A DNA stretch of 5,093 bases from a virus (Duplodnaviria; Heunggongvirae; Uroviricota; Caudoviricetes), in the IMG/VR virus record IMGVR_UViG_2541047905_000019, one strand, 5' to 3'. Below, one piece after another: positions 2,274 to 5,093 of the stretch. The translations under genes and the position numbers were made by a program. Position 1 is the first letter of the stretch, and the number at the start of each line of letters is the position of its first letter. The notes below the pieces were generated by a model. The model was not told where the DNA came from. It saw only the letters and a list, made by a program, of their open reading frames with translations, and did not search any database.

Positions 2274-3035
2274 ATGACCACTATTACCAAAGAGCGACTG
2301 CTGACAATCAGGCAGTGGCGCGAAACATACGGACCTGGTAGCAACGTTGTACTGCCAGCAGAAGAAGCGGAAGAACTGGCACGAATTGCTCTGGCATCGC
2401 TGGAAGCAGAGCCGATAGGTTTCCGTTGCAGGCGCAATGATAACCTTGGTGATTGGAGTTACGTATATCATCGAGAGCCAGATGATTTTGAGCGCAAACA
2501 TTTAGTGATAGAGGGCATTTACGCCGCCCCTCCAGCACCGGTAGTGCCTGAAGAAGCAACTCCGGAAAACGTAGAAATGCTCTCTGGCTATGTTTCAACG
2601 TACAAATTAACCGATAGCGAGCGCGATATTGCTGCCGAAATATGGAACGCCTGCCGCGCCGCCATGCTTCAGTCCGGAAACTTTCGGGAAAACAAGAATT
2701 CGTCAACCAATAATTTTCGGGAAATCGCGGAAACGTCAACCAACTATCCGGCAATTCCTAGTGAGGTGTTGTCCGCAATCCTGAAGGTTGCCAGGATTCG
2801 TGCCGATTTCGATGATTTTGACGGTGACAGGCGAGGTATCGGTGATTGTCTGGATGAGGCTGAGCAAGAGCTTATCGTTACCATTAACAAATATGCCAGT
2901 CAGTTGGCAGCAGAACCTATAGCGCCTAATGACGTTCGAGAGCAGACAGCCATTCCACAAGTTCCGGTAACTCCGGATGGTTGGATAAGCTGTAGTGAGC
3001 GAATGCCGGACGACAGGCAGGAGGTGAATCAATGA
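2274..3035 (+). CDS. Modular acidic prophage protein, 253 aa, with a Pro-rich linker, an internal duplicated segment and a C-terminal fragment resembling the start of a DUF551 domain
   Basis: ATG at 2274 with AAGGA at 2263-2267. Contains the linker AAPPAPVVPEEATPE, the in-frame repeat NFRENKNSSTN/NFREIAETSTN, and ends ...PDGWISCSERMPDDRQEVNQ*. That ending resembles the start of the DUF551 region in the 671..1033 protein (VSAELPPANESVLL) but stops before the W...THW..P part. Confidence 0.65.
   Translation: MTTITKERLLTIRQWRETYGPGSNVVLPAEEAEELARIALASLEAEPIGFRCRRNDNLGDWSYVYHREPDDFERKHLVIEGIYAAPPAPVVPEEATPENVEMLSGYVSTYKLTDSERDIAAEIWNACRAAMLQSGNFRENKNSSTNNFREIAETSTNYPAIPSEVLSAILKVARIRADFDDFDGDRRGIGDCLDEAEQELIVTINKYASQLAAEPIAPNDVREQTAIPQVPVTPDGWISCSERMPDDRQEVNQ
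2679..2744 (+). repeat. Imperfect 33-bp direct tandem duplication (2 units) inside the 253-aa CDS
   Basis: Unit 1 (2679..2711) aactttcgggaaaacaagaattcgtcaaccaat versus unit 2 (2712..2744) aattttcgggaaatcgcggaaacgtcaaccaac: 25 of 33 positions identical, with TTTCGGGAAA and CGTCAACCAA blocks conserved at fixed 33-bp spacing. In frame, so it encodes an 11-aa repeat. Confidence 0.8.
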
Positions 3036-3115
3036 GCTGGCCTGATGCAATCGTAACTCTGGGGGTGGTCTTCGCAGCAGCGTTTGTTGTGTTCTCGATT
3101 TGTCGATGGGGATAA
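3032..3115 (+). CDS. Micro-protein, 27 aa, predicted single transmembrane helix (MSWPDAIVTLGVVFAAAFVVFSICRWG); not in the supplied ORF track
   Basis: ATG at 3032 overlaps the stop of the 253-aa gene (ATGA). Strong SD GGAGG at 3020-3024 with a 7-nt spacer. An 18-residue hydrophobic core is flanked by W/D at the N-side and R/W at the C-side. Stop TAA at 3113-3115. Confidence 0.5.
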   Translation: MSWPDAIVTLGVVFAAAFVVFSICRWG

Positions 3116-3119
3116 CCAC

Positions 3120-3362
3120 ATGTTCGCTTTGATTCAACGCGGTCAGATATACACGGACAGAGCTGGATACCCCGTGGTGATTACTCGCATCACTGAGCAC
3201 TCAGTGTTCTTTCGACGGATGGACGGACGATCCGGGCGGGTACGCATTGGTGAGTTAAACTGCCTGTTCGAACATATTGACCACCAGGAGTACCGCAAAA
3301 TTCTCGCGGACACTGAGCAGGAAAAGCACCTGAAAAAATTACGAGCCATGAAAAGGAAGTAA
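3120..3362 (+). CDS. Hypothetical small prophage protein, 80 aa (possibly DUF4222-like)
   Basis: ATG at 3120 preceded by GGGGA at 3108-3112. The track's 3084 start is TTG with no SD and overlaps the micro-ORF, so ATG 3120 is preferred. Sequence MFALIQRGQIYTDRAGYPVVITRITEHSVFFRRMDG... The DUF4222 label is a tentative recollection. Confidence 0.65.
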   Translation: MFALIQRGQIYTDRAGYPVVITRITEHSVFFRRMDGRSGRVRIGELNCLFEHIDHQEYRKILADTEQEKHLKKLRAMKRK

Positions 3363-3365
3363 ACA

Positions 3366-3500
3366 ATGAATAAAGCATTTGAACGATGGGTCCACCAGCG
3401 TTACGGCAATCGCTATGATCTGACGCGAGATGTTGACGGTTTCTACTGTCGTGAAGTTGTGAAGCGAATGTTTGAAGTGTGGTGCCACTGCCGTGGATGA
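3366..3500 (+). CDS. Micro-protein, 44 aa, Cys/His-containing (MNKAFERWVHQRYGNRYDLTRDVDGFYCREVVKRMFEVWCHCRG); not in the supplied ORF track
   Basis: ATG at 3366 lies 3 nt after the upstream TAA, with SD AGGAAG at 3354-3359 (6-nt spacer). Stop TGA at 3498-3500. Cys28, Cys40, His41 and Cys42 could form a small metal site. Sits immediately upstream of xis. Confidence 0.45.
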   Translation: MNKAFERWVHQRYGNRYDLTRDVDGFYCREVVKRMFEVWCHCRG

Positions 3501-3518
3501 AAGTTTTATGAGGTTGGC

Positions 3519-3773
3519 ATGCAGACAATCATCTATCAGATAACCCCCAGCAAATGGTGTACGGAGAGAGTCCTTATTGCATCAACAGGGCTAAAGCCTG
3601 GCACCATTGAGCGGGCAAGAAGAAAGTCATGGATGCAGGGAAAAGAATACCGCCATTACGCTGTAGAAGGTGATCCGGGGCACTACAGTGAATGCCTGTA
3701 CAACATCGAAGAAATTATGCGATGGATCGAAAACCAGAAACAACCAGGTGCCAAAAATGCAAGTTCCGGTTAA
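3519..3773 (+). CDS. xis: Excisionase-like protein (lambda Xis-type winged-helix recombination directionality factor), 84 aa
   Basis: ATG at 3519 with GAGG at 3510-3513. Position immediately upstream of int. The pattern ...SKW...GLKPGTIERARRK....GKEYRHY... parallels the lambda Xis pattern (...eW....sletvrrWv......G.reYlfh). Confidence 0.65.
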   Translation: MQTIIYQITPSKWCTERVLIASTGLKPGTIERARRKSWMQGKEYRHYAVEGDPGHYSECLYNIEEIMRWIENQKQPGAKNASSG

Positions 3774-3806
3774 CCTGTTAATGCTCCTGGACGTCTGGGA
3801 GGTTTA

Positions 3807-5093
3807 ATGAGTAACGCATCATACCCGACAGGCGTTGAAAACCATGGAGGATCACTCCGTATATGGTTTCACTATAATGGCAAACGTGTCAGAGAAAACC
3901 TCGGTGTTCCTGACACAGCCAAAAACCGGAAGATCGCTGGTGAACTTCGCACTTCCGTTTGTTTTGCAATCAGAATGGGGAGTTTCGACTACGCCGCGCA
4001 GTTCCCTAATTCCCCTAACCTGAAACACTTTGGTCTGGGAAAAAGAGAGATAACCGTTAAGGCACTTTCGGAAAAATGGTTGGACCTTAAGAAAATTGAG
4101 ATTTGTGCGAATGCACTTAACCGTTACCAGTCAGTAATTAAAAACATGTTACCAATGTTAGGTGAAAAAAAACTGGTTTCATCCATAACAAAAGAGGATT
4201 TACTTTTCGTAAGGAGAGATTTGTTGACCGGTTACCAAAAGCTTTCTAATGGAAAGACTTCTTCCATAAAAGGGCGCTCAGTGGTCACGGTAAACTACTA
4301 TATGACAACCATAGCTGGAATGTTTCAATTTGCAACAGATAATGGTTATACCTCAGGAAACCCATTTAACGGTCTGGCTCCCTTAAAAAAGTCCAAGGTA
4401 AAACCAGATCCTCTCACCCGTGACGAATTTATTCGTTTTATTGAGGCTTGCCGTCATCAACAAACAAAAAACCTGTGGATTCTCGCTGTATACACGGGTA
4501 TTCGTCACGGGGAGTTGGTATCGCTGGCATGGGAAGATATAGACCTTAAAGCAAGGACTATAACCATCCGTAGAAATTATACAAAACTTGGCGAATTCAC
4601 TCCACCAAAAACCGATGCAGGCACCGGAAGGACAATTCATCTGGTTCAACCAGCTATTGATGCTCTTAAAAGCCAGGCGGAAATGACCATGCTTGGAAAG
4701 CAACATTCTGTAGAGGTGAAGCAGAGGGAATATGGGAGAACTGCTGTGCATAAATGCACTTTTGTTTTTAGTCCTCAGGTAACAAAACAGCAGCAGTTGT
4801 CCGGACCTCACTACAAGGTTGACTCCATCAGGGAGTCATGGACAAGTATCTTAAAACGCGCAGGTCTGAGACACAGAAAATCGTACCAATCCAGGCATAC
4901 TTATGCATGCTGGTCACTTGCCGCAGGAGCTAATCCTAGTTTTATCGCAAGCCAGATGGGCCACACAAACGCACAAATGGTATTCAATGTTTACGGAGCA
5001 TGGATGAAAGACAACAATCACGAACAGATAGAACTCCTTAACAAAAGACTATCTGAAAGTGTCCCATGTATGCCCCATAAGAAAGTTGGGTAA
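3807..5093 (+). CDS. int: Phage integrase, tyrosine site-specific recombinase, 428 aa
   Basis: ATG at 3807 preceded by GGGAGG at 3797-3802. C-terminal catalytic motifs are present: box I LAVYTGIRHGELVSLAWEDIDL (Arg) and box II SRHTYACWSLAAGANPSFIASQMGHTNAQMVFNVYGAWM (R-H...GH...Y). The N-terminus (LRIWFHYNGKRVRENLG) resembles an arm-type DNA-binding domain. Stop TAA at 5091-5093 is the last codon of the window. Confidence 0.9.
   Translation: MSNASYPTGVENHGGSLRIWFHYNGKRVRENLGVPDTAKNRKIAGELRTSVCFAIRMGSFDYAAQFPNSPNLKHFGLGKREITVKALSEKWLDLKKIEICANALNRYQSVIKNMLPMLGEKKLVSSITKEDLLFVRRDLLTGYQKLSNGKTSSIKGRSVVTVNYYMTTIAGMFQFATDNGYTSGNPFNGLAPLKKSKVKPDPLTRDEFIRFIEACRHQQTKNLWILAVYTGIRHGELVSLAWEDIDLKARTITIRRNYTKLGEFTPPKTDAGTGRTIHLVQPAIDALKSQAEMTMLGKQHSVEVKQREYGRTAVHKCTFVFSPQVTKQQQLSGPHYKVDSIRESWTSILKRAGLRHRKSYQSRHTYACWSLAAGANPSFIASQMGHTNAQMVFNVYGAWMKDNNHEQIELLNKRLSESVPCMPHKKVG

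Follow-up and report, generated by a model that had tools for sequence, protein, structure and literature searches.

A conserved micro-gene upstream of xis in lambdoid prophages of Enterobacterales: coding status, predicted fold, and its joint with unrelated excisionase genes

Small open reading frames (ORFs) packed between the early genes of lambdoid prophages raise the question of whether they encode proteins at all and, if so, of what kind. One such frame, of 44 codons, lies directly upstream of xis in an Escherichia coli prophage. A preliminary description of this DNA proposed that its cysteine and histidine residues could coordinate a metal, and drew a positional analogy with the zinc-binding protein Ea8.5 of phage lambda. 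Here, the coding status of this frame, the family to which it belongs, its relation to the downstream excisionase genes and the proposed analogy are examined by computational analysis.

Locus and coding evidence

The window, that is, the whole stretch of DNA analyzed (5,093 nucleotides), is the left (early, pL-side) end of a lambdoid E. coli prophage. Positions 3000-3900 are 100% identical to the prophage adjoining mlrA in strain UPEC129, where mlrA borders the end of the prophage, and 99.1% identical to Escherichia phage PhiR5_1. The genes are all on the plus strand, and the micro-gene is placed at the distal end of the leftward early block, which comprises Ea22-like genes, the DUF4222 gene, the micro-gene, xis and int. 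The features follow in this order:

1 to ~219, plus strand: end of an IS3-family element, inserted in yfdR
Between the IS3-family end and the Ead/Ea22-like gene, plus strand: several small phage genes
1462-1998, plus strand: Ead/Ea22-like gene
Between the Ead/Ea22-like and DUF4222 genes, plus strand: genes of 87 aa and 253 aa
3120-3362, plus strand: DUF4222 gene, upstream neighbor of the micro-gene and distant relative of the RgdR family
3354-3359, plus strand: SD sequence AGGAAG of the micro-gene, from the sequence, 6 nt before the ATG
3366-3500, plus strand: micro-gene, 44 codons plus TGA; PHROG 3871; identical to RefSeq WP_001030157.1
3510-3513, plus strand: GAGG, SD sequence of xis, from the sequence, 5 nt before the xis ATG
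3519-3773, plus strand: xis (DUF1233 excisionase, xisR-like); Pfam PF06806, E = 2e-29; phrog_539; RefSeq annotation
3807-5093, plus strand: tyrosine integrase (Arm-DNA-bind_2 and Phage_integrase), from domain matches and RefSeq annotation

The elements of the micro-gene given in the preliminary description were recovered. The frame runs for 44 codons from the ATG at 3366 to the TGA at 3498-3500, and is preceded by the SD sequence and a 6-nt spacer (3360-3365), which holds the TAA stop codon (3360-3362) of the DUF4222 gene. The packing is tight also on the downstream side, with 18 nt between the TGA and the xis ATG at 3519. The product, MNKAFERWVHQRYGNRYDLTRDVDGFYCREVVKRMFEVWCHCRG, has a mass of 5.6 kDa and a pI of 9.0, and it contains the C-x11-CHC arrangement formed by Cys28, Cys40, His41 and Cys42.

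Three other features of the window were observed. Its first ~219 positions encode the C terminus of an IS1203/IS629-like transposase (IS3 family), with the stop codon at 175-177; this 3' end of the element interrupts the prophage gene yfdR (5'-deoxynucleotidase), and identity to the uninterrupted UPEC129 locus begins at ~220. At 3032-3115 (plus strand), a hydrophobic micro-ORF of 27 aa, MSWPDAIVTLGVVFAAAFVVFSICRWG, starts with an ATG that overlaps the stop codon of the 253-aa gene (ATGA) and carries no annotation in the identical UPEC129 record. Related peptides (MSWPDA...WG) are found at the equivalent place in the loci L022 and L003/L004, and in locus L103 a peptide of this type lies directly upstream of a micro-gene/xis fusion. 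The 27-aa frame probably encodes a conserved single-pass membrane micro-protein. The DUF4222 ORF (coordinates 3084/3120-3362, plus strand) encodes a protein distantly related to RgdR (ECs1581), which is encoded by a prophage and activates LEE/type III secretion in enterohemorrhagic E. coli O157:H7 (PMC3378721, PMC10877973). The two proteins share 41% identity over 27 aa (BLASTP), and the window protein has RGQ at the site of the functionally important RGD of RgdR. RgdR was considered as a functional neighbor of the micro-gene and rejected, since no micro-gene adjoins it in its own prophage, Sp7.

With 53 ORFs of 30 aa or more in the window, a frame of 44 aa means little by itself, and for this reason a comparative test was used. 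When one genome per species was scanned, 17 loci were obtained from approximately 14 genera, including Shigella, Scandinavium, Pantoea, Citrobacter, Trabulsiella, Superficieibacter, Intestinirhabdus, Kosakonia, Serratia and Raoultella (one record, titled Chryseobacterium, is an outlier), and 16 distinct loci were used. No gaps are needed to align the 44 codons, and in all 16 of these diverged loci the frame is open, which bears out the expectation that it would be maintained in related prophages; the other five frames are open in 0 to 12 of the 16. Mean pairwise differences at the three codon positions are 0.18, 0.14 and 0.45. The dN/dS ratio (Nei-Gojobori) is 0.10 in the micro-gene frame and 1.3 to 1.9 in four of the other five; the fifth, which is antisense, gives 0.25, and its wobble position coincides with that of the micro-gene. 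In most loci the homologous ATG follows an SD-like purine run, despite differing upstream genes. Judged from these sequence comparisons, 3366-3500 is a genuine protein-coding gene under strong purifying selection as a protein, in agreement with the preliminary description, which had pointed to its good SD sequence and its tight packing between neighbors. It is extremely improbable that the frame arose by chance, or that the minus-strand ORFs of 49 and 112 aa that overlap it (3339-3488 and 3190-3528) are the real genes: one antisense frame is open in 12 of the 16 loci, but the plus frame of the micro-gene is the sole frame open in all of them, two of the three antisense frames have dN/dS values above 1 while the third shares its wobble position with the micro-gene, and between 2900 and 4000 neither strand showed a promoter-like site.

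At the nucleotide level, synonymous change across the thirds of the micro-gene amounts to 0.53, 0.45 and 0.41. An embedded RNA element was rejected as an explanation, since this change is spread along the whole ORF and is only slightly lower in its 3' part. Rfam gave no match within the window, a CII-type promoter motif (TTGC-N6-TTGC) was not found around the micro-gene, and predictions of sigma-70 promoters and terminators around it gave nothing above chance. The micro-gene would be expressed as a delayed-early gene from a pL-type transcript.

Family, distribution and predicted fold

The frame had been described as unannotated, which proved to be incorrect. The identical ORF is already present in RefSeq as WP_001030157.1, a hypothetical protein, and is annotated in phage PhiR5_1 as XSB41269.1; phages BP-4795 and YYZ-2008 carry hypothetical proteins over the same stretch. 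The protein matches the profile of PHROG 3871 (phrog_3871, function unknown) over its full length (E = 1.9e-32, residues 1-44 against profile positions 1-44 of 48), and all its PHROG matches are of unknown function. PHROG 3871/WP_001030157.1 has the same size, context and taxonomic range as the window protein, the latter being a 44-aa variant without the LxVV tail that is present in the commoner 48-aa form. The micro-gene is thus an already catalogued accessory gene of lambdoid Enterobacterales prophages, PHROG 3871. It occurs in 899 of 5,426 complete E. coli genomes (approximately one sixth), including O157:H7 prophages and Stx1a- and Stx2a-converting phages, and the E. coli matches listed all carry a "hypothetical protein" under the match.

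Homologue searches returned 95 clusters and then 207, the second number coming from a profile search of a set of 5.8 billion sequences. The genera represented include Escherichia, Salmonella, Klebsiella, Enterobacter, Citrobacter, Cronobacter, Pantoea, Serratia and Providencia. Among the 120 clusters listed of the 207, none has a functional name or a Pfam domain, the names being "hypothetical" or "bacteriophage protein." Among 1.8 billion representative proteins, a profile search identified 28 matches, which with one exception are small family members or fragments; a repeat protein (P0119) was discarded as a spurious match, its "TDSDGKY" repeats mimicking the hairpin motif. Scans of the micro-protein against Pfam and NCBIfam found no family at E values up to 1, and a scan with PADLOC (anti-phage defense) found none at E values up to 0.1. 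The micro-protein was also considered as an excisionase or recombination directionality factor in its own right, and this was rejected, as it matches none of the DUF1233, HTH_17/AlpA, Exc and PrtN families in Pfam, NCBIfam and PHROG and was not found to have a winged-helix fold. No paralogous modules were found inside the neighboring proteins, and searches of the literature on the accession number, the exo-xis region and DUF4222 found no paper that names the micro-gene.

Two kinds of natural rearrangement were observed within the family. An E. coli member of 58 aa (P0002) contains an internal tandem duplication of 14 residues, with REVVKRMFDVWCHC present twice; the duplicated segment is 42 nt long and lies inside the second helix. 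In locus L021 (2407-2560) and in H99/H100, the sequence between the 5' part of the DUF4222 gene and the final ~48 nt of the micro-gene is missing, and the two remnants are fused out of frame; this deletion is carried by prophage PPompW_14040 (record LC567818) and by some E. coli chromosomes. Such derivatives in resident prophages indicate that the micro-gene and the DUF4222 gene are dispensable for prophage maintenance, and the function of the micro-gene could be marginal.

Conservation within the family was assessed with 50 cluster representatives and with 128 distinct full-length members. Residues F5, Y17, L19, Y27, V32 and M35 are conserved in at least 98% of the 128 members, and E6, G14, R16, D22, G25, R29, E30, R34 and W39 in at least 92%. 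AlphaFold2, run with the family alignment, predicts a helix (residues 3-13), a β-hairpin (approximately 17-27) and a second helix (30-43) with a mean pLDDT of 87, although the alignment consists of closely related sequences and two of the five models have a pLDDT below 70. The product is therefore predicted to be a compact, basic domain of 44 to 50 residues with the order helix, β-hairpin, helix, in which an aromatic and aliphatic core (F5, Y17, L19, Y27, V32, M35 and W39), rather than a metal, would hold the fold.

A sequence profile search of the PDB gave chance matches to Pop2 only, and a fold search of the PDB gave no meaningful match. In BFVD, the top match is a member of the family (TM score of 0.94), and the other matches are uncharacterized proteins of Erwinia, Burkholderia, Acinetobacter and Ralstonia phages (TM scores of ~0.7 to 0.78, with 23 to 29% identity). 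These matches between models suggest a recurrent small phage module.

The joint with xis and possible roles

In the window and 13 further loci, the gene that follows the micro-gene encodes an excisionase, which starts between a 4-nt overlap with the micro-gene stop and 19 nt past it. These directly adjoining excisionases belong to at least six unrelated families:

DUF1233 / phrog_539: window, L003, L007, L009, L010, L014, and Salmonella loci L108-L111
phrog_1553 (HTH_17-like): L006, L008
phrog_66-like (AlpA-like): L012, L015
phrog_2917: PhiR12_1 (L022)
phrog_629 (lambda Exc-like): L016
PrtN-like: L019

The joint has the form TGAGGT (TGAGGC in one pair of loci), 4 to 5 nt, and the xis ATG in 11 loci, across five unrelated xis families. 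In the 48-aa form, the TGA overlaps the SD sequence of xis and lies 8 to 10 nt from the xis ATG (11 loci). This overlap of stop codon and SD sequence is an arrangement that would favor translational coupling of xis to the micro-gene. The tail of the window copy is shorter by 1 nt than that of the 48-aa form; this copy stops four codons earlier, 9 nt upstream of the xis SD sequence, and keeps the GAGG at 3510-3513.

The junction between micro-gene and xis (window 3495-3521; L003-L019 and L022) is a clear boundary between mosaic modules, placed exactly at the start codon. In two metagenome-derived contigs, the micro-protein domain was also observed fused in frame, by natural read-through, to a DUF1233 excisionase (P0115, L103 2963-3336).

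The gene upstream of the micro-gene varies as well: it is a DUF4222 gene in the E. coli lineages and other genes in other genera. In Klebsiella and in one Serratia locus, one gene separates the micro-gene from a gene of the AlpA or PrtN type, and in two Pantoea loci the micro-gene precedes the gene for a protein like the LexA DNA-binding domain. In Providencia (L104-L106), the micro-gene is found in the nin region, between NinB and DUF7740/RusA/NinH, and in another Serratia locus (L018) and in Intestinirhabdus (L013) it sits immediately before a Q-like antiterminator. The presence of divergent members in the nin region indicates that the micro-gene has moved between two accessory-gene regions of lambdoid genomes.

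On balance, we lean to the reading that the micro-gene encodes an early accessory micro-protein, a compact domain that would be held without a metal, which would bind a conserved macromolecule and whose translation may be coupled to that of xis. Its size, its predicted fold and its conserved charged surface suggest that the micro-protein may act as a small stoichiometric binder. The strictly conserved charged surface (R16, D18/D22, R29, E30 and K33/R34) would recognize the macromolecule, which would itself be conserved among Enterobacterales or among lambdoid phages. That this target is a particular Xis or Int is unlikely, because the same micro-protein is found with unrelated xis/int modules and, in some genera, lies within the nin region. 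In the lineage of E. coli, Salmonella and Citrobacter, the 3' end of the micro-gene would serve as a conserved joint for different xis-int modules, and translation of xis is probably coupled there to that of the micro-gene through the overlap of stop codon and SD sequence. Coupling is less certain for the window copy, given the distance of its stop codon from the SD sequence.

The micro-protein might instead be an accessory factor of excision that works with Xis or Int, for example as a co-factor or as a regulator of the dosage or stability of Xis. Its place immediately upstream of xis genes of six unrelated families, the in-frame fusion to a DUF1233 Xis and the overlap of its stop codon with the SD sequence of xis are consistent with such a role. 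We nevertheless consider it unlikely. Between L006 and L007, 4 of the 48 residues of the micro-protein differ and the upstream gene is the same, but L006 carries a phrog_1553 xis and L007 a DUF1233 xis, which makes specific recognition of Xis or Int unlikely. Furthermore, divergent members are found near NinB, RusA or Q, far from xis, and others are separated from it by one gene. The single fusion could also be a tolerated loss of the stop codon, with xis still translated from its own ATG.

It is likewise unlikely that the micro-protein, or the act of translating it, is a generic controller of excision that is independent of the module and sets the output of Xis for any downstream xis-int cassette. 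Such control would run through termination and reinitiation at the TGAGGT-ATG joint or through binding of a shared partner, for instance a host factor on which all these recombination modules rely, and the fusion to Xis would be a relic of that partnership.

The overlap of the TGA of the 48-aa form with the xis SD sequence, so near the xis ATG in 11 loci, could also be read to mean that the frame is a leader ORF, which only delivers ribosomes to the xis start and yields a peptide without function. This is very unlikely, considering the dN/dS of 0.10 and the core residues that are invariant across genera. The protein is conserved also where the downstream gene is Q, DUF7740 or LexA-like, and in the window the stop codon has moved four codons upstream of the usual joint.

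If the accessory micro-protein reading that we favor is true, PHROG 3871 adds one more conserved, uncharacterized early accessory micro-protein to those of lambdoid prophages. The joint for unrelated xis-int cassettes bears on phage mosaicism and possibly on the amount of Xis, and this conserved overlap of stop codon and SD sequence, with its interchangeable xis cassettes, is the angle with some potential. The importance of the micro-gene would rise only with a demonstrated effect on excision or host physiology.

Cys/His positions and comparison with lambda

The preliminary description regarded the C-x11-CHC cluster as a possible metal site and proposed its conservation in homologues as a test. 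The four positions are kept as follows:

Cys28: 43 of 50 representatives; 75% of 128 members
Cys40: 40 of 50 representatives; 80% of 128 members
His41: 33 of 50 representatives; 65% of 128 members
Cys42: 46 of 50 representatives; 83% of 128 members
All four: 23 of 50 representatives; 51 of 128 members (40%)
The three cysteines: 31 of 50 representatives; 67 of 128 members (52%)

With all four present in 40% of the 128 members, the Cys/His positions are not conserved as a set. Their replacements include Ala, Ser, Tyr, Arg, Glu and Leu; distant members keep none to two of the positions, P0099 and P0110-P0113 having one or two of the cysteines, and the member fused to xis retains only His41, with no cysteine at 28, 40 or 42. 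Since the invariant residues are hydrophobic or aromatic while the Cys/His residues vary, the pattern points to a small hydrophobic core with a conserved polar surface and not to a metal site, and coordination of a metal by C-x11-CHC is not supported. In the model, C40, H41 and C42 are consecutive on one predicted helix, which would be a poor geometry for a shared metal site.

The comparison with lambda leads in the same direction. The slot analogy is one gene off: in the lambda genome (NC_001416), xis is directly preceded by lambdap35 (orf55), and ea8.5 lies one gene further away (NC_001416; PMC8614690). The zinc-binding fold that the preliminary description gave for Ea8.5 is correct; a passage of PMC8614690 that cites Kwan et al. 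2013 describes a hybrid homeodomain/zinc-finger fold (PDB 2M7A). The statement that the micro-protein has no sequence similarity to Ea8.5 also holds (hhalign probability of 0.1, E = 0.56). Structure prediction and profile searches, which the preliminary description had put forward as checks, returned a helix-hairpin-helix model with no PDB match and no likeness to Ea8.5.

That the micro-protein binds zinc and is the positional analogue of Ea8.5 is hence hardly probable. In its favor, the window copy has C28, C40, H41 and C42, each of which is kept in 65 to 83% of homologues, and the fold reported for Ea8.5 in that passage includes a zinc finger. The incomplete set of ligands in most members, the nature of the invariant residues, the placement of three ligands on one helix, the hhalign result, the lack of a meaningful match to a solved structure by sequence or by fold and the position of orf55 all count against it, and at the level of sequence this reading is largely refuted. 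The practical value of this outcome is modest, in that a tempting zinc-finger/Ea8.5 analogy is corrected.

The exo-xis region is known to contain non-essential early accessory genes that modulate development (PMC8614690), and several products of accessory genes can be set beside the micro-protein. Ea8.5 is likewise a small protein, whose gene belongs to the exo-xis accessory region of a lambdoid phage and is transcribed towards xis. It has, however, 93 aa against 44 aa, and a hybrid homeodomain/zinc-finger fold against a predicted helix, hairpin and helix without a PDB match. Ea8.5 is termed exclusive to lambda (PMC8614690) and its gene is not adjacent to xis. The Cys/His residues of the micro-protein are not conserved. 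The orf55 gene of lambda is the closer counterpart in position: like the micro-gene, it is the last small ORF before xis, of similar size (55 aa) and of unknown function. Its product has been modeled as three β-strands and one helix, Gp2-like (PMC8614690), and it differs from the micro-protein in the order of secondary structure and shows no sequence similarity to it (hhalign probability of 0.3). Orf60a, Orf61, Orf63 and NinE/F/H are small, non-essential, transcribed early and shuffled among phages, as the micro-gene family would be; its window member has no Pfam or NCBIfam match to any of them. The micro-gene family itself is found in both the exo-xis and the nin regions.
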